Origin: Candidatus Levybacteria bacterium GW2011_GWA1_37_16
Lineage (GTDB): Bacteria > Patescibacteriota > Microgenomatia > Levybacterales > UBA12049
NCBI GenBank assembly: GCA_943354875.1
Contig: CALRDJ010000002.1
Location: 1 to 44,809, forward strand
Length of the DNA stretch: 44,809 bases
Direction of reading: 5' to 3'
This document shows, in pieces, positions 26,212 through 44,561 of the stretch (positions are counted from its first letter, which is position 1; each line of letters opens with the position of its first letter). Both the position numbers and the translations under genes were made by a program. Under the pieces are notes generated by a model. That model did no database searches. It saw only the letters and a list, made by a program, of their open reading frames with translations, and was not told the DNA's origin.

Positions 26212-26963
26212 AAAAAGTTTCCTTCTTAAGTAATCAGCAGACAGTCACTGGAACGCTTCATTTTCCTGAACTTGTAAAAGGTCTGCCTGTTGGCAGGCAA
26301 GGTAAAAATCCCGCAGCTCTTTTTATCCATGGATGGATGAGCAATGAAGACGGATACTATCCGAGAGCGAAAGCATTAACTGAACTAGGCTTTGTTTGCC
26401 TCACTATAAATCTCCGCGGACATGGAACCAGTAGCGGAAAACTGCAAGACTATTCCCGAAAAGACCACGTGGATGATTCACTTGCAGCGTACGATTTCTT
26501 GGCAAGTCAAACCTCTGTTGATGCAAATAACATCAGTATTGTCGGAGCTAGTTATGGAGGATATCTCGCTGCAATCGTGGCAGAAAAACGAAAGATTACC
26601 GCTCTTGCCCTTCGCGCACCAGCTCTGTACCCAAATACAGACTTTGACAAACCGACAGTAGATTTATTAGAAGATCGGGAGGATGAATTCTTCCAAAACT
26701 TCGAACCGGAAATAGATAACTTTGCTTTACATGGTGTTAAAAATGTAAATTCACTTCTCCTTATCGAATCTGAACTCGATCAAATCATTCCGCATAGAAT
26801 TATCGAACTGTATAAAAACCCAGTAAAAGATAAAACAAAACTAACTCATAAAATCATAAAAGAAGCCGACCATCAATTATCAAAAGAGGGGTGGAAGCAG
26901 GAATATATAGAACTACTAAAGGGGTGGTTTGGGGATGTGGATAACTTTACTCCCACTCCATAG
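26208..26963 (+). CDS. Alpha/beta-fold hydrolase (dienelactone hydrolase / S9-like)
   Basis: Nucleophile elbow GASYGG and C-terminal EADHQL. The start overlaps the purM stop (ATGA). The 3' end overlaps guaA convergently by 17 nt. Confidence 0.75.
   Translation: MKKVSFLSNQQTVTGTLHFPELVKGLPVGRQGKNPAALFIHGWMSNEDGYYPRAKALTELGFVCLTINLRGHGTSSGKLQDYSRKDHVDDSLAAYDFLASQTSVDANNISIVGASYGGYLAAIVAEKRKITALALRAPALYPNTDFDKPTVDLLEDREDEFFQNFEPEIDNFALHGVKNVNSLLLIESELDQIIPHRIIELYKNPVKDKTKLTHKIIKEADHQLSKEGWKQEYIELLKGWFGDVDNFTPTP
26284..26299. repeat. Mini-palindrome TGCCTG-TTGG-CAGGCA inside the hydrolase gene (encodes LPVGRQ)
   Basis: A perfect 6+4+6 palindrome, in frame, with the same CTGCC/GGCAG core as the other copies. 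Confidence 0.75.
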
Positions 26964-28473
26964 TGGCTGGAGGCTTGGTGGAAATATCATATACTACCCG
27001 GGAAATTGCCGGTACTTCATTTACTATTCGAGATGAAATCTTTTGCAAAACATCGTAGGGGAGCCGTGCCCATGTGGAAGTCATGATGTCTTTCGATTCT
27101 ACGACTCGAAGTGCGATAACCTCACCGAAAAATCTCCCATCCCCCTTTACCGCCACAGACTCTGCTCCTGTCATAACCGGAAAAGACATAAATACTGACT
27201 TGAGTAAATCTGCTTTCTCAAGCTCTTCGAGTAAAATTGCGTCTGCTTGTTTTATTTTTTGTAATCTCTCGGGCGTGACTTCTCCACGAATTCTCACTGC
27301 ATACCCTGGTCCTGGAAATGTCTGTTTCCAGATAAATTCATCTGGTAATCCAAGCTTTTTCCCGATAACTCTCACTTCGTCTTTATAGAATTCTCTCAGC
27401 GGCTCTATGAGAGATAATTCCATATGCTCCGGAAGTCCTCCGACGTTATGGTGACTTTTTATCTTATCAGCATGTTTACTGCCTTTACTTTCTATAACAT
27501 CTGAATAAATAGTGCCTTGCAAAAGGAACTTGACGGGCTTGCCAGACTCAACCAGCTTGTCCATTTCTCGCTCGAAAATTTCGATATAAAAATTGCCAAT
27601 AATTTTTCTTTTTTCCTCAGGATCAGTAACTCCCGACAGTCTCCCCTGCATCTCCCCCACCGCATCTACTACTATAGGCTTAACGTTGTGTTGGGCGAAA
27701 ATCTTTTTAACAAACTCTCCTGTCCCCTCTCGCATAAGTCCGTTATCGACATATATGGGGATAAATTGGTCTCCTATCGCCTCCCCTGTTAGTATTCCTG
27801 CCACTGTCGAATCCACTCCACCAGATACTGCTCCGATGACTACCCCATCCCCCACTGTGTCTTTAATATCTCGTTTTAACTTTTCGATATCGATAGTATG
27901 TTCTGTTTTTTTCGCTCCAGTTATTTCTATAAAGTTACGAAGAATTTGGTCTCCGTTCTCTGTATGCTCCACTTCTGGATGAAACTGAACGCCATAGATT
28001 TTCTTTTTTTCATCTGCCACAAATGCAAATGGCATATGATCGGTCATACCGATCGTCTCAAATCCATCTGGAAATTTAATAATCTCATCCCCATGACTCA
28101 TCCAGACGGTAAACTCCTCAGGTAACTTTTCAGTAATTTTTAATTTTGAACTTTTAACTTTTAACTCGGCCGGTCCATATTCTTTTCTTCCAGCTACCAC
28201 TTCCCCACCAAGAAGCTGTGCAGTTAATTGAAGTCCATAGCAAATACCCAGTATGGGGAGATTAAGTTCAAATATTTTAGGTTCGATGGTTGGCGCGCCA
28301 GCATCATAAACAGAAGATGGACCCCCAGAAAGAATGATACCGTTGGGTTTGGTGAGCTTAACGTCTGAGAGCGCATTTTCGGGCGTCGTGATGTGGGCTT
28401 GACTGCCAAGCTCTTTAATTCTACGAGCTATGAGGTGTGAAGTCTGAGATCCGAAATCGACTACTAGGATCAT
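26947..28473 (-). CDS. guaA: GMP synthase (glutamine-hydrolysing)
   Basis: GATase domain (GICYGLQ), ATP-PPase P-loop SGGVDS and the conserved C-terminus PPATMEWE. 508 aa. Confidence 0.95.
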   Translation of the reverse strand: MILVVDFGSQTSHLIARRIKELGSQAHITTPENALSDVKLTKPNGIILSGGPSSVYDAGAPTIEPKIFELNLPILGICYGLQLTAQLLGGEVVAGRKEYGPAELKVKSSKLKITEKLPEEFTVWMSHGDEIIKFPDGFETIGMTDHMPFAFVADEKKKIYGVQFHPEVEHTENGDQILRNFIEITGAKKTEHTIDIEKLKRDIKDTVGDGVVIGAVSGGVDSTVAGILTGEAIGDQFIPIYVDNGLMREGTGEFVKKIFAQHNVKPIVVDAVGEMQGRLSGVTDPEEKRKIIGNFYIEIFEREMDKLVESGKPVKFLLQGTIYSDVIESKGSKHADKIKSHHNVGGLPEHMELSLIEPLREFYKDEVRVIGKKLGLPDEFIWKQTFPGPGYAVRIRGEVTPERLQKIKQADAILLEELEKADLLKSVFMSFPVMTGAESVAVKGDGRFFGEVIALRVVESKDIMTSTWARLPYDVLQKISSRIVNEVPAISRVVYDISTKPPATMEWE

Positions 28474-28478
28474 AACTT

Positions 28479-28529
28479 ATTATACACTCCAGGTGATTAG
28501 TTGACAAGAGTTTATCACTTCTGTATACT
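28479..28529. promoter_or_regulatory. Back-to-back divergent promoters of guaA and purA with overlapping -35 hexamers
   Basis: Plus strand: TTGACA (28501-28506)-17 nt-TATACT (28524-28529). Minus strand: TTGTCA (28507-28502)-17 nt-TATAAT (28484-28479), which ends 5 nt from the guaA ATG. Confidence 0.6.
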
Positions 28530-28546
28530 CGCAAAGGGAAATTTTA

Positions 28547-30076
28547 ATGCCTGTTTATTCAGACGTTGCCAAAGATCTACACGACATCTACACGAAGAAC
28601 CGAATAATAATCGGCACCTCCGCCTCACAGCAAAAACCATCAGCACGAAAAAAAACTATAGCCGTAGTCGGGATCGCTCTCGGAGATGAAGGAAAAGGAC
28701 GCCTCGTCGATAATAGAATTCAATCACTCCTAAAGAAAAAGTCTACTAAGCATGTGTATGTCGTTCGTTTTCAAGGAGGAAACAACGCTGGCCACACGAT
28801 AGAAAAAGAGGGAGTAAAACTCGCTCTGCACCTTATCCCCTCTGGCGTATTTTACAAAGAAACTATCGGTATTATGGACCGAGGTATGTTTATCCATGTA
28901 GAGGATTTACAAACCGAAGTTGGGTATGTAGAAAAAGCGATCGGAAGTCTTAAAAACCGCCTCTTCTTATCTGACGAGGCCATTTTCTCATCTGATTTGG
29001 AACGCGCTGAAGAATGGCTTAACCGCATAAAAGCAGGGCAGGCTGCTGGCGGAACCGGTCGCGGAGTCGCACCATCATACGCTCATGCGATTGATCGACT
29101 GGGACTAAAGATGTTTGATTTTTTATCCGATGGGTGGACTGAAAAACTCGGTGATCAATATGATCGATATGTAAAAGAATTTAAAGCATATGGTATTGAT
29201 CTAAAGATAGTTGAAGTACCAGACTTTTTAGCAACGATTGCAGCAGGGTCTGAAAAAAAACGAAAAGTAGGCAGTAAAAAAGAATTTTTATCTAGACTTG
29301 AAACAGCCAGGAATTGGCTAGTCAAACGAAAAATGATTATCAACACGTTTCTTGTCCATAAAAAAATAAAAAATGACTCTTCTATCGCGATTCTTTTCGA
29401 GGGCGCACAAGCTACGGGACTTGATCCATGGATTGGAACTAGACCAGATGTTACCTCGACTAATACATCCGCATATGGAATCCGAGATGGCACTGCGTTC
29501 TGGCAACCATTTGAAGTAGAAAAAAAGGTCGGCGTATTTAAAATTCCTTATACTTCCAGTGTCGGTGCTAGACGCATGCCTACTCACATCGATCTCCCAA
29601 AAGACCTGAAAGACTTACCGAAGAATCCATCGCTTGACCAAGAATGGGGCGCATATGTCCGTGAAACTGCACATGAATACGGCACGACCACCGGACGACC
29701 TCGAGATATTAACCATCTCGATCTTCCATTTCTCTCATACAACGCCAAAATGTCTTATATTGACGTACTTGAAGGAACTCATCTGGATATAGCACGAGAA
29801 GACACTAAGATCAAAGTGTGTACACATTATGTGAATAAAAAGGGAGAGATAGTTCCCTATCAACCAGGACTCAGATATCAAAGAGACATTACTCCCATAT
29901 ACATAGAGCTACCTGGATGGGACGGCAGTCTCTGTAAAAAGGCCAAGAAAGTTACAGATTTACCACTGAACGCTCGAAAATATCTAAGCTTCATCCAGAA
30001 AAGAATGGGACTACCCATTGTCGGAGTTACCACTGGATCTCTGCGGGACAACATCGTCTACTTCGAAGGATATTAA
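28547..30076 (+). CDS. purA: Adenylosuccinate synthetase, unusually long divergent form
   Basis: GDEGKGRLVD, QGGNNAGHT, GGTGRGVAPSY, FEGAQATGLD and GTTTGRPR motifs are present. At 509 aa it carries an N-terminal extension and internal insertions relative to the ~430 aa canonical enzymes. Confidence 0.85.
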   Translation: MPVYSDVAKDLHDIYTKNRIIIGTSASQQKPSARKKTIAVVGIALGDEGKGRLVDNRIQSLLKKKSTKHVYVVRFQGGNNAGHTIEKEGVKLALHLIPSGVFYKETIGIMDRGMFIHVEDLQTEVGYVEKAIGSLKNRLFLSDEAIFSSDLERAEEWLNRIKAGQAAGGTGRGVAPSYAHAIDRLGLKMFDFLSDGWTEKLGDQYDRYVKEFKAYGIDLKIVEVPDFLATIAAGSEKKRKVGSKKEFLSRLETARNWLVKRKMIINTFLVHKKIKNDSSIAILFEGAQATGLDPWIGTRPDVTSTNTSAYGIRDGTAFWQPFEVEKKVGVFKIPYTSSVGARRMPTHIDLPKDLKDLPKNPSLDQEWGAYVRETAHEYGTTTGRPRDINHLDLPFLSYNAKMSYIDVLEGTHLDIAREDTKIKVCTHYVNKKGEIVPYQPGLRYQRDITPIYIELPGWDGSLCKKAKKVTDLPLNARKYLSFIQKRMGLPIVGVTTGSLRDNIVYFEGY

Positions 30077-30084
30077 ATCCTATT

Positions 30085-30170
30085 GTCATGCCGAACTTGT
30101 TTCGGCATCTCCCTGTGTCTAGAACTTGCCCCGCCGTAACGGGGAGATCCCGAACTAAATTCGGGATGAC
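30085..30170. repeat. 86-bp composite palindromic element (three hairpins), a probable bidirectional terminator between purA and guaB
   Basis: Hairpins are ATGCCGAA-cttgt-TTCGGCAT (30088-30108), CCCCG-ccgtaa-CGGGG (30129-30144) and ATCCCGAA-ctaaa-TTCGGGAT (30147-30167). The termini GTCATGCCGAA and TTCGGGATGAC are inverted repeats with one mismatch. Confidence 0.8.
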
Positions 30171-30181
30171 ACCTAAAAAGG

Positions 30182-31324
30182 TTAGTAGTTTTCTCCAGGG
30201 TTGGTAATAAGTACGTCATGTGGATGGCTTTCAGAAAGCGATGCCTGGGTAATTTGGATAAACTTTCCTTTTTCTGCTAATTCTTCGATCGTTTTCGCTC
30301 CTACGTAATACATTCCTGATTTTATGCCACCAAGTGCTTGATCCATGAGTTCTTTTACCGTTCCCTTTACCGGAACTAGTCCTTCTACTCCCTCTGCCAC
30401 TAATACTCTATCTTTATAACTTTTTCCATGATATTCATCTTCTGACTTTACTGCTGCACCTTTTTGCATCGCCCCAACCGACCCCATGCCACGATATGCC
30501 TTAAACGTATATGTTTCTTTTTTTGATTTAAAAATACTTTGGAAACGCTGAGGTACCTGTTCAGGAGTTAGCTCCACGATTTCCCCAGGTGCCTCCTGTG
30601 CCGAAGCGAAAAAACTTCCCATCATGATGGCCGATGCGCCTGCTGCGAGCGCTTTTACTATATCACCAGAATATTTAATGCCCCCATCAGCGATGATAGG
30701 AACTCCGTGCTTTCGCCCTGCACGAACAGCTTCAAGTATTGCTGTTATCTGCGGAACTCCCATACCGGAAATAATACGAGTAGTACAAATCGCACCTGGT
30801 CCCATTCCGACACGCACTCCATCTGCTCCTGCTTTTATAACTGCCTCTGCCCCATCAAATGTAGCGACATTTCCACCGATTACCTGAAGATCTTTATAGG
30901 TATTTTTAAGATATGAAATCGCATCGAGAACTGACTTCGTGTTGCCATGTGCTGAATCCACAATTACGACTGATACGCCAACCTCCACCAATGCTCTCGC
31001 TCGATCTTCAAATCCAGTAGCTCCGATAGCTGCTCCGACTAACAAATTCTGGCTTCTCACTTCTTTCACCATACGCGCCTGATCTGCTACAGATAGGTTG
31101 CGATGAATAATACCGATACCACCCAAAGAAGCCAGTGCGATAGCCAATTTAGCTTCGGTAACAGTATCCATGGGAGAAGAAACAAAGGGAATATCGAGTG
31201 TAATTTTCTTCGTTAATTTGGTTTTTAAATGTATCTCGCTACGAGAAAAATCAGCATGTCCAGGGATAAGCAGTACGTCGTCAAAGGTGTAACCGATGGG
31301 AAATGAAGTATTTTGGGGCTCCAT
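30182..31324 (-). CDS. guaB: IMP dehydrogenase lacking the CBS (Bateman) subdomain
   Basis: Catalytic loop [17 protein letters not shown] and the finger/flap segments are present. [34 protein letters not shown] joins directly where the CBS pair is normally inserted. 380 aa. Confidence 0.88.
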
Positions 31325-31329
31325 AATTT

Positions 31330-31358
31330 ACTATACAATGAGGCGCCTTTTTTGTCAA
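31330..31358 (-). promoter_or_regulatory. guaB promoter (leaderless configuration)
   Basis: On the minus strand, TTGACA (31358-31353)-17 nt-TATAGT (31335-31330), with the ATG (31324) 5 nt downstream. Confidence 0.6.
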
Positions 31359-31397: not shown

Positions 31398-32732
31398 TTA
31401 ACTCACAGGACTGAGCTCTCTCAACTCTCCGTTTAATAATTTCGGAATTGAAATCCTGTGCGCTCCAGATGGAACACCTTTAAAAATTGCCTGAGCAATT
31501 TCTCCTACATCTGCATGCGTTATAAGTAATACTGTCTCTCCATGGTGTACTTTTTCCAATTCTTTTATGAGAAGACTAATTCTCCGCGCAACGTCATCCG
31601 TGGTCTCCGCGTGAAAACCTCTGGCAAGCTCTGGATCTTTTTGATCTGCATCGTATACTATCTGATAATTTGATTTTTTTGTTCCCTCAAATTGACCAAA
31701 ATCTCGCTCTTGAAGTTCGAACTTCGGAACTACGCTACCATCGTATCCATACTCCTGTCTAAATTCAGAGGCAGACTCCCTACATCTCTGAAAAGGAGAA
31801 GCATAAATTGCGCCTATATGAATGCCGTTACTTTTTGCTACTTTAGCTGCTTGTTTCATCTGCTCTCTTCCTTTACTCGTAATACCAAAGTCTTCGATAC
31901 CATTTAGGGGACTGCTTATGATTACACCTTGTTCATTTGCTACGCTCTCCCCATGCCTCAAGACTAAATAGCGATTCCTCAGTCTTTCAGAAGAAAATAA
32001 ACTTGAGTTTTCTTGCCAACTATCCATAGCTAGTTTTATTAGTAAGAGCATATCAGGCACTACTCTTTCTTCATACCTTCCAAAGTTCTTCACTATAATA
32101 TGTGCTCCAGGGAAAATAATCGCTGATCGCTCGTCTTTAGATAACCTAAACGCTACTTCTTCAGGTGATTTTATAAATAAATCAGGTGAGCGTCTCTGTA
32201 GCCTTCTCTCTCTTTCTTTATCAGGAGTATATAGTCCAACAACGAGAGCATTTTCAAGCACAGAAGACGGTTGAATACTTGCTGGATTTTTCACGATAAC
32301 ATTATTAGCAAAAAATATGGGTAACTTTCCAAGCGTTGGTTTTTCCAGACCAAATGGCTCAGTTCTACCACCTTCCATTGTCTTGATACCATACAGTCCG
32401 AGGCCTCCATCCTGAAGGAGGGTTTTAAATTCTTCAGAAGAGGAGTGAAATACTTCATGCCCATCATCAGAGCGAAGTGGACGAGTAATTACTCTTCTTG
32501 GAACACTAATCTTTCCTGCGAAATGAGCATCTTGAGTAGAAGCATCTATAACCGCTTTTTGTATTGTTGATTTACCACTTGCAGAAGATCCGACAAAAAT
32601 GACAGATGAAACTTCATCTAATTGCGAAAGGTTTCTTGTCCTAACCCTAAGAGAGTCCATTCTTGCTTCTCGGATTGCTTTTGCAAGTTTATTTTCTCCC
32701 TGTCCTCTTGCTGTTTCTGTATTTATAGCCAT
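31398..32732 (-). CDS. Fusion protein: N-terminal P-loop kinase (PhnN/guanylate-kinase-like) plus C-terminal histidine phosphatase (PGAM/CobC superfamily)
   Basis: The N-terminal half has Walker A VGSSASGKST and RRVITRP...SSEEF spacing, as in PhnN/GMP-kinase-type proteins. The C-terminal half has LVLRHGES (the RHG catalytic motif) and LLITHADV (the second His). 444 aa. Confidence 0.65.
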   Translation of the reverse strand: MAINTETARGQGENKLAKAIREARMDSLRVRTRNLSQLDEVSSVIFVGSSASGKSTIQKAVIDASTQDAHFAGKISVPRRVITRPLRSDDGHEVFHSSSEEFKTLLQDGGLGLYGIKTMEGGRTEPFGLEKPTLGKLPIFFANNVIVKNPASIQPSSVLENALVVGLYTPDKERERRLQRRSPDLFIKSPEEVAFRLSKDERSAIIFPGAHIIVKNFGRYEERVVPDMLLLIKLAMDSWQENSSLFSSERLRNRYLVLRHGESVANEQGVIISSPLNGIEDFGITSKGREQMKQAAKVAKSNGIHIGAIYASPFQRCRESASEFRQEYGYDGSVVPKFELQERDFGQFEGTKKSNYQIVYDADQKDPELARGFHAETTDDVARRISLLIKELEKVHHGETVLLITHADVGEIAQAIFKGVPSGAHRISIPKLLNGELRELSPVS

Positions 32733-32883
32733 AAAAAAACCTCTCGTAAAGAGAGGTTTGCCTTCTCACCTAGTAAGTGGACTAATCCTTCCCTTTACGG
32801 GTTGGGTTTAGCACCGTTTCAATTTTGAGCGGTTGCCGGATGGGTCACAGAGCCAATTCTCTCGCCATCACTCTTGATTAAAG
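32733..32883 (-). promoter_or_regulatory. SAM-I (S-box) riboswitch: aptamer (32779-32883) plus intrinsic terminator / RBS-sequestering hairpin (32733-32760)
   Basis: The minus-strand RNA is CUUUAAUCAAGAGUGAUGGCGAGAGAAUUGGCUCUGUGACCCAUCCGGCAACCGCUCAAAAUUGAAACGGUGCUAAACCCAACCCGUAAAGGGAAGGAUUAGUCC. It carries the S-box signatures AUCAAGAG, P2 GAUGG/CCAUC with a kink-turn, CGGCAACC, GGUGCUAAA, a P4 hairpin and P1 UUAAUC/GAUUAG. It is followed by ACCUCUC-UUUAC-GAGAGGU, a U-run and the AUG. Confidence 0.88.
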
Positions 32884-32885
32884 CG

Positions 32886-32914
32886 ATTGTATCAAAAACA
32901 GTTGTTCTCGACAA
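32886..32914 (-). promoter_or_regulatory. Promoter driving the S-box leader
   Basis: On the minus strand, TTGTCG (32914-32909)-17 nt-TACAAT (32891-32886) with an extended-10 TG. Confidence 0.6.
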
Positions 32915-32943
32915 GCTCGAACTATAATTGCTACTATAGTAGT

Positions 32944-34473
32944 ATGTTAGCCACAGTAAATTCTTCTGCGGTGGTGGGACTTAACGCTGTCCCTATCGAA
33001 GTGGAAATAGATATTTCCGCCCAAGGCCTCCCCTCTTTTACCATCGTCGGATTACCAGATAAAGCAGTCGAAGAAGCGAAAGAGCGCGTCAGAAGCGCAC
33101 TAAAAAATAGTAAAGCGGATTTTCCAGCGAAACGCATTACAGTAAATCTCGCCCCAGCAGACCTGCCAAAAGAAGGCGCCTCATATGATCTCCCTATCGC
33201 ACTTGGGATTCTTCTCGCATCAGAGCAATTAAAAGGCGACTTCACCACCAGTCTTTTCCTCGGCGAACTATCTCTGGACGGACGACTTAGACACGGAAAC
33301 GGCATACTTCCCCAGATAATTATGGCTAAAGAAAAGAATATCGATACAGTATTTGTCCCGAGTATGAATGCGCAGGAGGCAGCGATCATAAAAGACATAA
33401 CAGTGTATCCAGTCGCTACTCTCACTGAACTTTTTAAGCACATTACAGGACTCAAACTTATAGAACCCCAGAAACATATTTCTCATGAAACTCTGTTATC
33501 ACAGGAGTCTTATGAATTTGATATGCATGATATTCGAGGTCAGGAACAGGCAAAGCGCGCATTTGAAATCGCAGCAGCAGGTGGACATAACATGCTACTA
33601 AAAGGCCCTCCTGGTTCTGGAAAAACACTGCTCGCTAGAACTCTCCCCTCCATCCTTCCCCGCTTAACACTTGATGAGGCGCTGGAAGTTACGAAAATTT
33701 ATAGCGTTTGTGGCATGCTCGATAAGCCTCTTATTACTACCCGTCCATTCAGAAGTCCTCATCACACCACCTCCCACATCGGACTTATCGGTGGAAGTGC
33801 GACGCCAAAACCAGGAGAGATCTCACTAGCCCATCGAGGGGTTTTATTTTTAGACGAACTACCAGAATTTCCCCGTCATGTTCTCGAGGCACTTCGTCAA
33901 CCACTGGAGGATGGGATCGTAACGATCGCCCGCGCGAATGGTCGCGTCGCATTTCCTGCTAAATTTATGCTGGTCGCCGCACAAAACCCGTGCCCCTGTG
34001 GATACCTGGGAGACAAAACACACTCGTGTTCCTGTAGTACCTCTCAAATCTTACGCTATCAGAAAAAAATATCAGGGCCACTTCTTGACCGCATCGATAT
34101 ACATCTCGAAGTTCCCGCAGTAAAAACAGATAAGCTCACTGATCAGGAAGAAAACATGAATGAAACATCCGAGTCCATCCAAAAGAGAGTCCAAAAAGCC
34201 CGCGACTTTCAAACCAAACGGTTTGAAGAATTGAACATCACTTGTAACGCAGAAATGTCCCAAAAAGAAATTAAAAAGTTCTGTGAATTATCGAAAGAGT
34301 CGCATACGCTCCTTCAGCTTGCAGTCACGAAAATGAATCTATCTGCGCGCTCATACTATCGCATCATCCGGCTCGCCCGCACCATCGCTGATTTAGAAAA
34401 TAAACTAGAAATCGCTCCCTCTCACATCGCAGAAGCGCTCCAATATCGTCCAAAAACTGATACACTCTTCTAA
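32944..34473 (+). CDS. comM: Mg-chelatase-like AAA+ ATPase ComM/YifB
   Basis: MLATVNSSAVVGLNAVPIEVEIDI is the typical N-terminus. Walker A is GPPGSGKT, and the C-terminus is SHIAEALQYR. I used ATG 32944 rather than the TTG-extended ORF from 32887. Confidence 0.9.
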   Translation: MLATVNSSAVVGLNAVPIEVEIDISAQGLPSFTIVGLPDKAVEEAKERVRSALKNSKADFPAKRITVNLAPADLPKEGASYDLPIALGILLASEQLKGDFTTSLFLGELSLDGRLRHGNGILPQIIMAKEKNIDTVFVPSMNAQEAAIIKDITVYPVATLTELFKHITGLKLIEPQKHISHETLLSQESYEFDMHDIRGQEQAKRAFEIAAAGGHNMLLKGPPGSGKTLLARTLPSILPRLTLDEALEVTKIYSVCGMLDKPLITTRPFRSPHHTTSHIGLIGGSATPKPGEISLAHRGVLFLDELPEFPRHVLEALRQPLEDGIVTIARANGRVAFPAKFMLVAAQNPCPCGYLGDKTHSCSCSTSQILRYQKKISGPLLDRIDIHLEVPAVKTDKLTDQEENMNETSESIQKRVQKARDFQTKRFEELNITCNAEMSQKEIKKFCELSKESHTLLQLAVTKMNLSARSYYRIIRLARTIADLENKLEIAPSHIAEALQYRPKTDTLF

Positions 34474-36149
34474 TGATTAAGCGTCTTATTTCTGTCGTTA
34501 TTTTTCTCTCTCTTTTCGCGCTTTTTTATCATCCGATTACTGCCATAAACCAAGACCTCGGCAGACATCTATTAACCGGCAATATTATTTTGTCGACCAA
34601 AACTATTCCTACCGTTAATCTTTTTTCCTATACTCATCCCGATTTTCCTTTTATCAATCATCACTGGTTTTCAGAAGTTATCTACTCACTCCTCTACTCT
34701 ATTTCTGGTTTTCATGGCGTACTTATTTTTTCAACTGCAATTATATTGCTTTCATTTTTTCTTCTCTACAAATTTGTTTATAAAGATGCGTCAACCTTTG
34801 GTCTTATGGTAGCTTCCATTTTTTTCTTAGGACTTATCGCTGATCGCACTGATGTACGCCCTGAAATTTTCAGCGCACTCTGTATCAGCATTTTCTTAAC
34901 CACATTATTTTCATTTCAAAAACATCCCTCGAGAAAAATATTTTTTCTCATTCCTCTACAAATCCTCTGGACCAACATGCATATCTACTTTCCTATCGGA
35001 CTTTTTCTCATCGGTATTTTTCTGATCAATGATTTTATAACAAACAAATATAAACTAAATCAAAAACTATTCTTTGTCACTATTGGCGTTACACTTGCGA
35101 CTCTCGTAAACCCTCACGGAATCACAGGCGCTCTATATCCATTTGTCGTCTTACAAAACTATGGATACTCAATAGAAGAAAATCAAACCATGCTCTTTCT
35201 TTGGAAGCTTTTAGGAAAACAGAATATTATTATTTATTTCATCGGATCCCTCTGGGCGGTTTGCACACTCCTTTTTTCAACTCATAAGAAAAATTTTGTC
35301 TATTGGTCACTTATATTGTCCGGCATTATCCTCACTTACATGCAGGAACGAAACGAACTCTTGCTTGTTTTGTTTTCTTTCATTCCGATGACTGCAGTCA
35401 CTACTGATGTTTTAAAAAACATTTCTAAAAACTCAAAAACGTTACTTACCGTAGTGCTTTTGGGAACTCTTTTCTGGGTAGTAACTCCCTATATTCAAAA
35501 CCGAGGACTTGGATTTGGACTTCCCGAATATGCGAAAAATGGAGTGGATTTTATGATAAAAAATAAAATTACTGGACCTATGTTTAATAACTTTGATATC
35601 GGTAGCTATCTCGAATATCGCCTATATCCAGAGGGAAAAGTTTTTATCGATGGCAGACCCGAAGCATATCCCTCCTCATTCCTTCAAAGTGAATATATTC
35701 CCATGCAGGAAAACCCTACCGTGTTTGAAAAACTAGACGAAAAATATGGATTCAACGCCGTTTTCTTTTTCTATCCAGACCAAACCCCTTGGGCAGCACA
35801 ATTTACTAAGAGTATCATCTCAAACCCGAAGTGGTCACTCGTGTATCTGGATGGCAATACCATAATTCTTCTGAAGAAAAATGAAAAGAATAAAAAGTTA
35901 ATTTCAAGTTTTGAAATGCATCCTGACAGCCTTCACATATCCGATGATCTAAAAAATAAAGAGGTAGTTAGCCATCTTCTTTTCTTATTTAGCAATCTTG
36001 AATGGAAAAACGAACTAATTCAAATGGTGGAAAAAACGATACAGATTGACCCGAACAACTGCTACTCTCTTTATTATCTAGGAGCAAATGGAACAAATGA
36101 GGCTTTACGAGGAATGTACGCACAAAGATTTACAACGCTGTGTAAATAA
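34473..36149 (+). CDS. Polytopic integral membrane protein, possibly a GT-C-fold glycosyltransferase
   Basis: 558 aa, with at least 10 hydrophobic helices followed by a soluble C-terminal domain. The start overlaps the comM stop by 1 nt. The functional call is weak. Confidence 0.4.
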   Translation: MIKRLISVVIFLSLFALFYHPITAINQDLGRHLLTGNIILSTKTIPTVNLFSYTHPDFPFINHHWFSEVIYSLLYSISGFHGVLIFSTAIILLSFFLLYKFVYKDASTFGLMVASIFFLGLIADRTDVRPEIFSALCISIFLTTLFSFQKHPSRKIFFLIPLQILWTNMHIYFPIGLFLIGIFLINDFITNKYKLNQKLFFVTIGVTLATLVNPHGITGALYPFVVLQNYGYSIEENQTMLFLWKLLGKQNIIIYFIGSLWAVCTLLFSTHKKNFVYWSLILSGIILTYMQERNELLLVLFSFIPMTAVTTDVLKNISKNSKTLLTVVLLGTLFWVVTPYIQNRGLGFGLPEYAKNGVDFMIKNKITGPMFNNFDIGSYLEYRLYPEGKVFIDGRPEAYPSSFLQSEYIPMQENPTVFEKLDEKYGFNAVFFFYPDQTPWAAQFTKSIISNPKWSLVYLDGNTIILLKKNEKNKKLISSFEMHPDSLHISDDLKNKEVVSHLLFLFSNLEWKNELIQMVEKTIQIDPNNCYSLYYLGANGTNEALRGMYAQRFTTLCK

Positions 36150-41119: not shown

Positions 41120-41851
41120 ATGCCACAACGAGAAAAACTTACCGTCGAAAAACGAACAGTTTTGGGAAAAAATGTAAAGAGAATGCGAAAGCAGGGTCTT
41201 TTGCCCGCAAATATTTATGGTAAAGGCTTGGAGTCTACCTCTGTACAAGTACCTACGAAAGAGTTTGAAGCACTTTTTAAAGAAGTAGGAGAAACCGGTC
41301 TTATAGATGTCGTCTTAGATGGCCAGTCTCATCCAGTACTCATCAAAAACATTCAAATAGCCTCAGTTACCCGAAAAATTCTCCATGCTGAATTCTATCA
41401 AGTAAACTTAAAAGAAAAAATTAAAGCTATGATACCAGTTGAAGTCGTAGGAGAACCAAAGGCAGTAACTGATAAGCTCGGACTATTACTCCAAACATTA
41501 TCTGAAGTTGAAGTTGAAGCACTACCAGAAGATCTCCCTGAAAAATTTGAACTGAACGTAGAACACTTGGCAACAATTGATGAGCAAGTAACCGTAGCCG
41601 ACCTAAAGGCACCTCAAGGAGTAGAAATATTGACCGAAGCAGAACAAGTCGTAGCTAAAATTTCAGAATTGGTTTCTAAAGAAGCAGAGGCTGATGCCGC
41701 CGCCGCAGAAGCTGCAGCAACTGCTGCATCCACAGAAGGCGAAGCCACAGCTGAAAGCGCAGAGGGCGTATCATCTCCAGAGGGTGAAGGCGAAAAACCA
41801 GCTTCAGGCGACGAAAAGACTAAGGAAGAATCAAAATCAGAAGAAAAATAA
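41120..41851 (+). CDS. rplY: 50S ribosomal protein L25 / general stress protein Ctc, with an acidic low-complexity tail
   Basis: RTVLGKNVKRMRKQGLLPANIYGKG is the L25 N-terminus, followed by a beta-barrel Ctc domain and an Ala/Glu-rich C-terminal tail. Confidence 0.9.
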   Translation: MPQREKLTVEKRTVLGKNVKRMRKQGLLPANIYGKGLESTSVQVPTKEFEALFKEVGETGLIDVVLDGQSHPVLIKNIQIASVTRKILHAEFYQVNLKEKIKAMIPVEVVGEPKAVTDKLGLLLQTLSEVEVEALPEDLPEKFELNVEHLATIDEQVTVADLKAPQGVEILTEAEQVVAKISELVSKEAEADAAAAEAAATAASTEGEATAESAEGVSSPEGEGEKPASGDEKTKEESKSEEK

Positions 41852-41854
41852 GAA

Positions 41855-42313
41855 CTACTCCCCTAGTACCTTTTCAAATTCTCTCCCTGGAATAAAATTA
41901 GGATCAATTTCCAACGTCTTTTCTAAGTTCACCTTTGCCCTATCTGTATCTCCCAGCCTGTAGTCCGCAACAGCCATCATGAAATAGCCGTCTCTATATA
42001 ATGGATATGCATGGGTAACCTCTCTCCACTTCTCTCGATCCAGAATCAGATCCTCTCTTTCCATCAAGCGACTCGCAAGTACGTTTTTAGCAGTATAGAG
42101 TTCATATCCCTGCCCAATTAGCGCTATAGTGAGCAATGCTGAGATGATTAACACATTTTTCTTAAATGAGTCCACTGCGCGGAACAACGAAAAGAATCGT
42201 TCCCCAAACCCCCGTGGTGCTTCGGGAATACTTCGGGAAATACTCGGGGATTCTTTTTTCGCTACCTTTTTTACAATTCGTGGCTTACGTGGCTTCGTAT
42301 TTTTAACAGACAT
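41855..42313 (-). CDS. Membrane-anchored TPR-like hypothetical protein
   Basis: Basic N-terminus, one TM helix (VLIISALLTIALIG) and a TPR-like C-terminus (AVADYRLGDTDRAKVNLEKTLEIDPNF). It lies 4 nt downstream of valS. Confidence 0.5.
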   Translation of the reverse strand: MSVKNTKPRKPRIVKKVAKKESPSISRSIPEAPRGFGERFFSLFRAVDSFKKNVLIISALLTIALIGQGYELYTAKNVLASRLMEREDLILDREKWREVTHAYPLYRDGYFMMAVADYRLGDTDRAKVNLEKTLEIDPNFIPGREFEKVLGE

Positions 42314-42317
42314 AATA

Positions 42318-44561
42318 TTATTTGGGCCAACTTGAAATCATAATGGAATCCTCTCCCCCCAGCTTTCCATACATCTCTTCTGTTATGAATGGCATAAATG
42401 GATGTAGGAGTTTTAAGAGAGTTACGAATAGCGAATTGAGAACCATAAAGGAATTTTCATCAATTCTGTTCTTAACATCTTCTATGTATTTATCAGCGAA
42501 TTCATGCCAGATAAACTCATATAATTTTTCAGATGCGAAATTAAACTGATAACTGTCTATATTTTTCGTAACTTCTGTAACCAAAGCCTGTACTTTTTCC
42601 ACCATCGCCTTATCATTCTCATGCATTGAAATAGTGTCATTCTGGAGCGTAGCGATAGAATCTATTTGAGGGATCCTATCGGTCGTTTCGCTCCCTCCAG
42701 GATGACCCGAAGTAGGTCTTTTCATTTCTATAAACCGTGTCATGTTCCAAAGCTTATTCGCAAATTTTCTTGACGCATCGAGCTTCGGATATGAAAGACT
42801 TTGATCATTTCCTGTGGCATTTCCATATACGAGCGCAAATCGCACCGCATCCGCACCGTACTGCTCCACCAGCTCCAAAGGATTTACTACATTTCCCTTG
42901 CTCTTACTCATTTTTTTCCCATATGGGTCATTTACGAGTCCATGAAAAAGCACATCTTTAAAAGGAACCTCTCCAGTAATATACATCCCCAGCATAATCA
43001 TGCGTGAAACCCAAGAGCGTAAAAGATCATACCCGGTTTCCATGACCGCAGTCGGATAAAACTTTTCAAAATCACCAGACTTTGTGGTCATAAGTGTCAA
43101 GTATGGCCACTGCCCTGAAGAAAACCATGTGTCAAATGTGTCAGTATCCTGTTCTAGATTAGTAGATTCACATCTTGGACATTTATCTGGCTTCTCACCC
43201 TCAGTTACTATCCAGTCTGATTTTTTGTCATTCTGGAGCGGATTCGACGAACTCACCGTAAACTCCGCGATAGAATCCTTATGAGAGATCCTATCGGTCG
43301 CCTTGCTCCCTCCAGGATGACAAGAGACGCACTGCCAGGCAGGAATACGAATTCCCCATACAATTTGTCTGGAAATATTCCAATCTCGTAAGTTATCCAT
43401 CCACTGACCATAATGGTTTTCGAAGTTTTTAGGAGTTATTTTTATTTCACTTTTTTTAACCGCTTCAAGTGCTTTTTCTTTTAGTGGACCTACTTTCACA
43501 AACCACTGCTCGAGCGGTAATGGCTCCAAAACATTTCTGCATTTATAGCAAAGCCCTACTCTATTTACATATTCTGTATCAATTTTTTCAATTAACCCTT
43601 TCGCCTGCATCTCTTCCACTATCGCTGCACGAGCCTGCTTGATATATAATCCCGCAAACTTACCTGCGTGCTCATTCATCTTCCCGTCAAACCCGATTAC
43701 CTGCTTGAGTGGCAGATTGTGTCTTTTTCCTGTCTCATAATCATTAAAATCGTGCGCCGGTGTTACCTTCACCACGCCCGTTCCGAATTCGGGATCGACC
43801 ATCTCATCCCCTACTACTTGTATGCTTGCCATACCCAAAACCGTCTCGACCTCTATTACTTTTCCAATGTATTGCTGATACCGAGGATCTTTCGGATGCA
43901 CGGCGATACCGGTATCGCCAAATTTTGTTTCAGGACGCGTCGTGGCTAAAACAAGCGGTCCATACTTTATGTAATACAAAGGACTTCTTCGTTCTTCGTG
44001 TACGACTTCCAAGTCTGAGTAGCCGGTTCCATCAAATGTGCAGTAATTTACCAATCGGTAATCTCGATACACGAGTCCATCTTCATGCATTTTTTTAAAC
44101 GTTTTATATACCAGCAGGACGATGTCTGGATCGAGCGTATATTTTTGGCGTGACCAATCAAGGGAGAATCCAAGCTTCCTGAGCTGATTCTCTATCCCCC
44201 CCTTATTCTCCTCTACATACTCACTGATCATCTTGTAGAGCGTTTCCTGGTCAAAATCAAACCTCGACTTTCCCTGCTCTTTTAGCTTCTTTTCGAAAAC
44301 GAATTGGGTTTCAGTTCCTGCATGATCAGTGCCCGGCAGCCATAATGCACTCTCTCCGAGCATCCGATGATATCTGATAAGAACATCCTCTACCGCAAAC
44401 ATCGCATGACCGAAATGAAGTGCTCCATTCGCATTTGGTGGCGGCAAAACAATACAATATGGTTTTCCATCTGGGTGAATTTCAGGCTTAAAATATCCTT
44501 TTTCTTCCCAATCCCTGTATATTTTCTCCTCAACGTCTCTGTGGTTATATATCTTATCCAT
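42318..44561 (-). CDS. valS: Valine-tRNA ligase, short form without the C-terminal coiled coil, carrying two repeat-derived insertions
   Basis: PPPNANGALHFGHA (HIGH), KMSKSKGN (KMSKS), TRPETKFGD and VDPEFGTGVVKVTPAHD are present. 747 aa. Confidence 0.95.
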   Translation of the reverse strand: MDKIYNHRDVEEKIYRDWEEKGYFKPEIHPDGKPYCIVLPPPNANGALHFGHAMFAVEDVLIRYHRMLGESALWLPGTDHAGTETQFVFEKKLKEQGKSRFDFDQETLYKMISEYVEENKGGIENQLRKLGFSLDWSRQKYTLDPDIVLLVYKTFKKMHEDGLVYRDYRLVNYCTFDGTGYSDLEVVHEERRSPLYYIKYGPLVLATTRPETKFGDTGIAVHPKDPRYQQYIGKVIEVETVLGMASIQVVGDEMVDPEFGTGVVKVTPAHDFNDYETGKRHNLPLKQVIGFDGKMNEHAGKFAGLYIKQARAAIVEEMQAKGLIEKIDTEYVNRVGLCYKCRNVLEPLPLEQWFVKVGPLKEKALEAVKKSEIKITPKNFENHYGQWMDNLRDWNISRQIVWGIRIPAWQCVSCHPGGSKATDRISHKDSIAEFTVSSSNPLQNDKKSDWIVTEGEKPDKCPRCESTNLEQDTDTFDTWFSSGQWPYLTLMTTKSGDFEKFYPTAVMETGYDLLRSWVSRMIMLGMYITGEVPFKDVLFHGLVNDPYGKKMSKSKGNVVNPLELVEQYGADAVRFALVYGNATGNDQSLSYPKLDASRKFANKLWNMTRFIEMKRPTSGHPGGSETTDRIPQIDSIATLQNDTISMHENDKAMVEKVQALVTEVTKNIDSYQFNFASEKLYEFIWHEFADKYIEDVKNRIDENSFMVLNSLFVTLLKLLHPFMPFITEEMYGKLGGEDSIMISSWPK
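42636..42706 (-). repeat. 71-bp imperfect palindromic element, in frame inside valS (anticodon-binding region)
   Basis: The element is GTCATTCTGGAGCG...GATAGAATC-tatttgagg-GATCCTATC...CGCTCCCTCCAGGATGAC. It encodes HPGGSETTDRIPQIDSIATLQND. Confidence 0.8.
43227..43321 (-). repeat. 95-bp copy of the same element, in frame inside valS (Zn-knuckle region)
   Basis: About 85-88% identical to 42636-42706 by hand alignment, plus a 24-nt internal insertion. It encodes HPGGSKATDRISHKDSIAEFTVSSSNPLQND. Confidence 0.8.

Follow-up and report, generated by a model that had tools for sequence, protein, structure and literature searches.

A probable SAM-I riboswitch with the layout of a transcriptional OFF switch in the leader of a kinase-phosphatase gene from a Levybacteria genome

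Results

A SAM-I aptamer in the leader of a kinase-phosphatase gene

The DNA analyzed here, referred to as the window, is the whole 44,809-nt stretch of contig CALRDJ010000002.1 of Candidatus Levybacteria bacterium GW2011_GWA1_37_16, a host belonging to the candidate phyla radiation (CPR)/Patescibacteria. Its minus strand carries a gene for a 444-aa protein in which a guanylate-kinase-fold P-loop kinase domain is followed by a histidine phosphatase domain. The RNA leader of this gene, located between the gene and the divergently transcribed comM/yifB, contains a class I S-adenosylmethionine (SAM-I, S-box) aptamer followed by an intrinsic terminator. The parts of the aptamer are the following.

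32780-32883, minus strand: SAM-I (S-box) aptamer, defined by its match to RF00162 and by pair counts on four related leaders
P1, minus strand: UUAAUC 32881-32876 with GAUUAG 32787-32782, 6 bp
J1/2, minus strand: AUCAAGAG, given as minus-strand sequence
P2a, minus strand: GAUGG 32869-32865 with CCAUC 32843-32839
P2b, minus strand: GAG 32861-32859 with CUC 32852-32850
P3, minus strand: GGCAACC 32837-32831 with GGUGCU 32815-32810
P4, minus strand: CCC 32801-32799 with GGG 32793-32791, loop GUAAA, 3 bp only
Pseudoknot, minus strand: P2-loop UUGG 32856-32853 with J3/4 CCAA 32805-32802

The whole 44.8-kb window was searched with cmscan against all 4227 Rfam families, and RF00162 (SAM, S-box leader) at 32883-32780 on the minus strand was the sole match. 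It scored 54.9 bits compared with a gathering score of 44.4, with an E-value of 4.5e-10, and covered the model in full length (positions 1-108 of 108). A match of this quality is far beyond chance. The initial annotation, which had been made from the sequence alone, had proposed an S-box core on this strand; every aptamer element that it listed could be identified where it had been placed, and the RF00162 score lies above the gathering threshold.

All helices of the four-way junction, P1 to P4, are present. In the cmscan alignment, the kink-turn motifs can be recognized at the sequence level, with CGA (5' strand) aligned to the consensus GGA and GUGA (3' strand) to UGAA, and all highly conserved consensus positions are retained except for one A to C change in the 3' strand of the kink-turn. 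The nucleotides of the ligand pocket are also present (J1/2 AAGAG, P3 GCAACC/GGUGC, J3/4 AA and the inner A-U pairs of P1). Judged from its sequence, the element is SAM-I by every defining feature that can be computed, and would be expected to bind SAM. As an RNA it is an ordinary case of a well-known class, which any Rfam-based annotation pipeline would find. Assignment to the related class SAM-I/IV was considered and rejected: P4 is located in the junction, the 3' hairpin of SAM-I/IV is absent, and SAM-I wins the clan competition.

SAM aptamers at related loci

SAM aptamers of two classes were identified directly upstream of the kinase/phosphatase module in six lineages, the window and five others (L numbers denote related loci; MAG, metagenome-assembled genome).

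Window: SAM-I, 54.9 bits (gathering score 44.4)
L001 group (L001/L012/L023, Roizmanbacteria MAG): SAM-I, 48.7 bits (gathering score 44.4)
L024/L025: SAM-I, 55.2 bits (gathering score 44.4)
L026: SAM-I-like, 40.8 bits, E-value 2e-6 (under the gathering score of 44.4), with deviating J1/2 and J3/4
L008/L010: SAM-I/IV, 42.8/42.6 bits (gathering score 41.1); L007/L009, 40.6 bits
L030: SAM-I/IV, 43.1 bits (gathering score 41.1)

Base pairs were counted on four SAM-I leaders (window, L001, L024 and L026). Because MAFFT alignments of the leaders misplace the P4 of L024 by one column and misalign its terminator, a hand-curated pair table was used. Standard pairs occupied 96.2% of the pair cells, compared with 23-49% when the 3' partners were slid by 1-3 columns, and the single unpaired cell of P4 is an alignment artefact. 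No disrupted pairs were observed in P2, P3 or the pseudoknot. Two-sided changes occurred at four pairs, namely P2a pair 2 (A-U to G-C), P2a pair 5 (G-C to A-U), P2b pair 2 (A-U to G-C) and pseudoknot pair 1 (U-A to C-G); the pseudoknot UUGG/CCAA of the window is CUGG/CCAG in L001, with its pairing preserved. In the Rfam register, P1 of L001 is AGCAUA/UGUGUU (6 bp) with two unpaired positions beside the junction. The P1-P4 pairings that the initial annotation had expected to recur in orthologous leaders are thus conserved there. This covariation supports the predicted structure but is not proof of it, as it comes from four sequences and all double changes come from L001; the score of the covariance model is the main test.

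In L026 the SAM-I-like aptamer (L026:816-919) has AGCGAG instead of AAGAG in J1/2 and CCCCACCC instead of UAAACCC in J3/4, and it could represent a variant whose affinity or specificity for the ligand has changed. It is followed by an unannotated open reading frame (ORF) of 120 aa (L026:1002-1364) and then by the phosphatase and kinase genes.

At the SAM-I/IV loci, the start codon called for the 456-aa orthologue P0003 falls within the aptamer (L008:805-860, L007:153, L009:199). Translation probably begins instead at the AUG that immediately follows the U-run of the terminator (L008:860), and the protein would then lose ∼18 residues.

The expression platform offers a terminator and an antiterminator

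Downstream of the aptamer, the leader contains two competing structures and a hairpin between them.

32733-32759, minus strand: intrinsic terminator from the terminator scan, 9-bp stem AAACCUCUC/GAGAGGUUU, loop UUUAC, U7 tract at 32739-32733
32784-32798, minus strand: 5' strand of the antiterminator, GUAAAGGGAAGGAUU, made up of the loop (GUAAA) and 3' strand (GGG) of P4, of J4/1 and of the beginning of the P1 3' strand
32746-32758, minus strand: 3' strand of the antiterminator, AACCUCUCUUUAC, consisting of terminator 5' arm bases and the loop
32798-32791 with 32753-32746, minus strand: pairing within the antiterminator, GUAAAGGG with CUCUUUAC
32760-32782, minus strand: intervening hairpin GUC-CA-CUUAC-UAG-GUGAG-AA-GGC, between aptamer and terminator and inside the antiterminator helix, predicted in every fold

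The terminator scan recovered the element that the initial annotation had described as ACCUCUC-UUUAC-GAGAGGU with a U-run and the AUG behind it. The hairpin AAACCUCUC-UUUAC-GAGAGGUUU spans 32759-32737 with an energy of -11.5 kcal/mol, and the U7 tract (32739-32733) directly abuts the AUG at 32732.

For the nascent RNA, the leader was folded with its end at the base preceding the 3' arm of the terminator. The minimum-free-energy structure then contained a long helix of GUAAAGGGA.GG.UU (32798-32784) with AA.CC.UCUCUUUAC (32758-32746). This helix is incompatible with P4, P1 and the terminator simultaneously, and is therefore identified as the antiterminator. Both of the mutually exclusive structures that the initial annotation had proposed to look for by folding hence exist. 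Folds of the full-length leader had energies of -43.3 kcal/mol with the antiterminator, -45.2 kcal/mol with the terminator and -40.1 kcal/mol with the aptamer enforced (no ligand term included), and such near-equal energies are what a switch tipped by its ligand requires.

In the relatives, a hairpin of unrelated sequence occupies the position of the intervening hairpin, and the terminator stem of L001 is near-identical to that of the window. The loops of P4 and of the terminator compare as follows (P4 loop, then terminator loop).

Window: GUAAA and UUUAC
L001: AUAU and AUAU
L024: UUUU and AAGA
L026: GAUAA and UUUUC, with one U-U mismatch

Thus, although the loop sequences differ, the P4 loop is complementary to the terminator loop in all four SAM-I leaders, and the antiterminator pairing is also possible in L001, L024 and L026. 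This comparison across leaders is the strongest part of the evidence for the expression platform.

The Shine-Dalgarno-like motif in the terminator arm

The 3' arm of the terminator contains GAGAGG (32745-32740), a Shine-Dalgarno (SD)-like motif; no other purine-rich motif lies within 20 nt of the AUG at 32732. The initial annotation had deduced from this a dual control, in which ligand binding both terminates the transcript and hides the ribosome-binding site. The geometry and the uniqueness of the motif were confirmed; occlusion of a ribosome-binding site is plausible at most, given how rarely SD motifs occur in the window and where translation starts in the relatives.

The same evidence bears on an alternative, equivalent to the translational half of this dual control, in which the aptamer acts mainly on translation, the hairpin hiding GAGAGG and the AUG-proximal region, and termination is incidental. 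It would fit the position of GAGG, which lies within the 3' arm 7 nt from the AUG, and the recurrence of the layout in the SAM-I/IV leaders of L008/L010 and L030, where terminator, U7/8 run and AUG follow each other so closely that no separate ribosome-binding site would fit; placing the start codon right at the U-tract is thus a recurrent design. Against this, the hairpin with its U7 tract is a textbook intrinsic terminator, and initiation guided by an SD is not usual in this genome, an SD core (GGAG, GAGG or AGGA at -16 to -7) being present at 2 of the 37 gene starts of the window. Moreover, behind the same kind of terminator the start codons of L001, L024 and L026 lie 19-40 nt further downstream and outside the hairpin: L001 has an identical GAGAGG arm with the start codon 19 nt downstream, and L024 has its own AAAGGAAA before the real start. 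Since terminated RNA is never translated, occlusion would be relevant to read-through transcripts only, and any effect on translation would be secondary. Control that is mainly translational is therefore considered unlikely. From the comparison of the leaders, GAGAGG appears to be conserved as a partner in terminator and antiterminator, not demonstrably as a ribosome-binding site, and an added, secondary effect on the translation of read-through transcripts is possible.

In L024, a dead AUG-GUU-UGA (L024:1447-1455) was observed directly after the U-run, at the position of the start codon in the window, 20 nt before the real start.

Promoter and transcription start

A promoter must be located in the stretch of roughly 60 nt that separates the aptamer from the divergent comM. 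The candidate in this region is:

32886-32914, minus strand: TTGTCG-17-TGaTACAAT, 9 of 12 consensus positions, assignment uncertain

In 2 kb, 8 promoter-like sites were counted compared with 3.8 ± 1.7 in shuffled sequences, and TTGTCG-17-TACAAT is not significant alone. Its -35 element aligns with the TTGACA of L001 and L024, where the -10 element follows 16-17 nt further on. The TACAAT box ends 4 nt before the first base of P1, compared with 15 nt for L001 and 17 nt for L024. Further upstream are two TATAGT boxes (32926-32921 and 32938-32933) whose promoters likewise match 9 of 12 positions, and with either of them P1 would stay intact. The promoter named in the initial annotation, TTGTCG-17-TACAAT, is thus present as a sequence, and its role as the promoter of the leader is only plausible, given the 4-nt distance to P1 and the non-significant match.

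A hexamer matching TATAAT at 5-6 of 6 positions and ending 4-10 nt before the start codon was found at 14 of the 37 gene starts of the window, compared with a background of 4%. Such near-consensus -10 elements close to start codons point to leaderless transcripts with a gap of 5-9 nt between the -10 element and the start site. Most first genes in the window therefore appear to be leaderless, and the riboswitch-controlled gene would be among the few that need a long leader. The gene starts surveyed include those of guaB (31324-31358), comM (32932-32944) and the ORFs at 42318-44561 and 41120-41851.

The promoter-like sequence of comM/yifB, a TG-extended TCGACA-18-TACTAT (32908-32944, plus strand), has a -10 element that ends 6 nt before the ATG, and its transcript may be leaderless. 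It overlaps the promoter candidates of the riboswitch back-to-back in a divergent control region of 60 nt.

The regulated gene and its homologues

The gene behind the leader is:

31398-32732, minus strand: 444-aa regulated gene with AUG at 32732; residues ∼25-240 guanylate-kinase-fold P-loop kinase, residues ∼255-425 His_Phos_1

The AUG at 32732 fits the alignment of homologues, because conserved residues start before Met25. The C-terminal half is a histidine phosphatase (PF00300, E-value 1.5e-26). The N-terminal domain stayed under all curated cut-offs, with 19.6 bits compared with 25.2 for PF00625, 16.7 compared with 160 for TIGR03263 and 19.8 compared with 156 for PhnN TIGR02322. A profile search of this domain against the PDB matched Plasmodium guanylate kinase over the whole domain (E-value 9e-4). 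The AlphaFold model of the protein has a pLDDT of 88, and Foldseek aligned it with guanylate kinases at TM 0.55-0.70 and 14-19% identity. Identification of the kinase domain as Gmk or PhnN was rejected, as every curated cut-off was missed by a wide margin. According to the model and profile searches, the N-terminal domain is a guanylate-kinase-fold P-loop kinase, presumably of the phosphate-acceptor type, the match to guanylate kinases being at fold level only.

Homologues were found almost exclusively in CPR/Patescibacteria assemblies (Roizmanbacteria, Parcubacteria, Liptonbacteria and others), and a few MAG records are labelled otherwise (Gammaproteobacteria, Deltaproteobacteria, Bdellovibrionales and Kofleriaceae). 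An exact search of the assemblies index for the window protein itself gave no entry. The two domains are arranged as follows.

L001-L006, L012 and L023 (Candidatus Roizmanbacteria): fusion, 51-52% identical to the window protein
L007-L010: fusion, 53% identity to the window protein
L024/L025, L026-L029 and L013: separate neighboring genes in the order phosphatase-kinase, 45-47% identical to the window protein
L030/L031: kinase gene followed by another gene, 56% identity (kinase domain)

In L007, metK lies on the same strand 32 nt behind the orthologous gene, and the interval contains no terminator-like site.

In L014-L022 (proteins P0006-P0032), a NUDIX hydrolase at the N-terminus takes the place of the histidine phosphatase as the fusion partner of the kinase domain. 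Such NUDIX-fused kinases occur in Liptonbacteria, Kaiserbacteria, Jacksonbacteria, Uhrbacteria and other CPR lineages, and the swap of NUDIX and phosphatase domains may hint at a nucleotide or sugar-phosphate substrate.

The phosphatase-then-kinase module of L013, from a Patescibacteria MAG, is preceded by an AT-rich leader of 290 nt (L013:2718-3006), which ends in a strong terminator (ACAGCCU-CGAAGA-AGGCUGU and U7) immediately upstream of the start codon. This leader has no match in Rfam and might be a leader element or riboswitch that has yet to be described. A RelA/SpoT gene is the divergent neighbor of the module.

Genomic surroundings

The other features around the regulated gene are:

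30182-31324, minus strand: guaB (IMP dehydrogenase without CBS insert, 380 aa), 73 nt downstream of the 444-aa gene
28547-30076, plus strand: purA
26947-28473, minus strand: guaA
32944, plus strand: ATG of comM/yifB, upstream of and divergent from the 444-aa gene

The genes guaA (minus), purA (plus) and guaB (minus) form a compact purine-interconversion cluster (26947-31324) immediately downstream of the riboswitch-controlled gene. guaB has a promoter-like sequence of its own, TTGACA-17-TATAGT (31358-31330). In the terminator scan, no terminator-like site was found between the 444-aa gene and guaB, and SAM-dependent read-through into guaB could occur. The 558-aa ORF directly after comM (34473-36149, plus strand) and a 152-aa ORF (41855-42313, minus strand) had no Pfam match at E ≤ 1e-5.

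Discussion

The leader of the kinase-phosphatase gene most probably is a class I SAM riboswitch (RF00162) that acts as a transcriptional OFF switch in a CPR/Patescibacteria host. This assignment is carried by the identity of the aptamer, the terminator, the alternative pairing and their conservation across relatives. When SAM is scarce, 32798-32784 would pair with the 5' arm and loop of the terminator (32758-32746) and block the terminator, so that RNA polymerase would enter the gene, with the 3' arm GAGAGG and the AUG single-stranded. With SAM bound, the four-way junction would lock P1 and P4 and withdraw the 5' strand of the antiterminator; the 9-bp hairpin with its U7 tract would form, and transcription would end 1-7 nt before the AUG. 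In transcripts that escape, the start region would be folded into the hairpin. The kinase/phosphatase would thus be raised at low SAM, which would place the enzyme pair in the SAM/methionine regulon.

Several observations weigh against this interpretation. The regulated gene has no known tie to methionine or SAM chemistry, and the methionine, cysteine or SAM gene that usually accompanies a SAM-I element is represented indirectly, through the aptamers of the five other lineages and the metK of L007. When the gap of 5-9 nt is applied to the TACAAT box, transcription would start at 32880-32876, inside the 5' strand of P1, leaving 3-5 of its 6 pairs. P1 did not form in an unconstrained fold of the whole leader (z-score -1.75), which is expected because the ligand and tertiary contacts lie outside the thermodynamic model; the direction of the switch is thus proposed by analogy with characterized S-box leaders. 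In L001 and L024, enforcing the antiterminator costs 6-9 kcal/mol relative to the minimum-free-energy structure of the nascent leader, because GAGAGG-like purine-rich segments of their aptamers can pair with CCUCUC. Furthermore, no SAM aptamer was found with the NUDIX-fused relatives of the kinase domain (L014-L022) at E ≤ 0.01, and the 321-nt leader of the two-gene module L013, searched alone at E ≤ 5, had only weak matches that were driven by its terminator. The distant kinase homologues L032/L033 also had no SAM aptamer.

That the target is not a classical methionine or SAM gene could also mean that the aptamer has the SAM-I fold and a changed ligand, e.g., S-adenosylhomocysteine or another adenosyl compound, which would suit a target of the nucleotide type. 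The L026 leader, with its deviations at conserved J1/2 and J3/4 positions and its score below the gathering threshold, would fit such a change. The window, however, retains J1/2 AAGAG, GCAACC, GGUGCUAA and the inner A-U pairs of P1, its score exceeds the threshold by 10 bits, and orthologues use a second SAM-binding class (SAM-I/IV), one of them adjoining metK, so that a different ligand is very unlikely. A decaying relic or chance match without a regulatory role, as might be suggested by the reduced genomes of CPR bacteria and a P1 clipped by the start site, is hardly credible with an E-value of 4.5e-10 and with aptamer, terminator and antiterminator complementarity maintained in diverged lineages whose proteins are 47-56% identical.

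The value of a SAM-I riboswitch at this locus lies in what it says about the function of the gene, as it ties the kinase-phosphatase to SAM metabolism. CPR bacteria have very small genomes with many unassigned genes, and a SAM-responsive OFF switch before one module in six lineages would indicate that the enzyme pair is wanted at low SAM. The module might represent an unrecognized step of SAM homeostasis in CPR bacteria with new chemistry, which would either feed MetK, e.g., by returning the adenosyl or ribose-phosphate moiety of SAM by-products to ATP or phosphoribosyl pyrophosphate, or take over the kinase and phosphatase reactions of methionine salvage with enzymes of unrelated folds. This suggestion, which is tentative and has the balance of probability against it, is based on the coupling of kinase and phosphatase by fusion as well as by adjacency in either order, the SAM aptamers of two classes in six lineages, the adjacency of metK in one lineage and the presence of guaB, purA and guaA beside the module in the window. 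The element offers a testable entry to the SAM supply of mostly uncultivated organisms and would also provide, from a CPR genome, a small natural terminator under ligand control; as an RNA alone it is of modest interest, and as a clue to what this CPR enzyme pair does, of moderate interest. In the literature covered, riboswitches are mentioned for Patescibacteria only as a prospective genetic tool (PMC11665869). A search of that literature for naturally occurring SAM riboswitches of CPR bacteria and for their association with this gene returned nothing relevant, which is not proof of novelty.

Comparison with known systems

Dual-acting riboswitches use a single hairpin both to terminate transcription and to sequester the ribosome-binding site. 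As in these, the leader of the window holds GAGAGG and the nucleotides before the AUG in a terminator stem and U-tract. It differs from them in that an SD core is present at only 2 of 37 gene starts in the window and in that this arrangement of motif and AUG is not conserved in L001, L024 and L026.

With the S-box/SAM-I leaders of Bacillota (yitJ, metI and mtnKA of Bacillus subtilis and the metF aptamer of Thermoanaerobacter tengcongensis), the window element shares the P1-P4 junction, the kink-turn in P2, the pseudoknot between the P2 loop and J3/4 and the conserved core. A further common feature is the competition between an intrinsic terminator and an antiterminator downstream of the aptamer, by which the gene would be OFF at high SAM. 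S-box leaders of B. subtilis also control a kinase and a phosphatase, MtnK and MtnX of methionine salvage, the folds of which are unrelated to those of the module in the window. Unlike the Bacillota leaders, the window element occurs in a CPR/Patescibacteria host and precedes a fusion of a guanylate-kinase-fold kinase with a histidine phosphatase. Its P4 is minimal (3 bp), its U-tract abuts the AUG without a separate ribosome-binding site, and its antiterminator would be formed largely by the loop and 3' strand of P4 instead of the P1 3' strand alone.

Another close counterpart is SAM-I/IV (RF01725), which belongs to the same clan (CL00012) and has the same SAM-binding core. It precedes the orthologues of L008, L010 and L030 and is followed there by the same succession of terminator, U-run and AUG as in the window.

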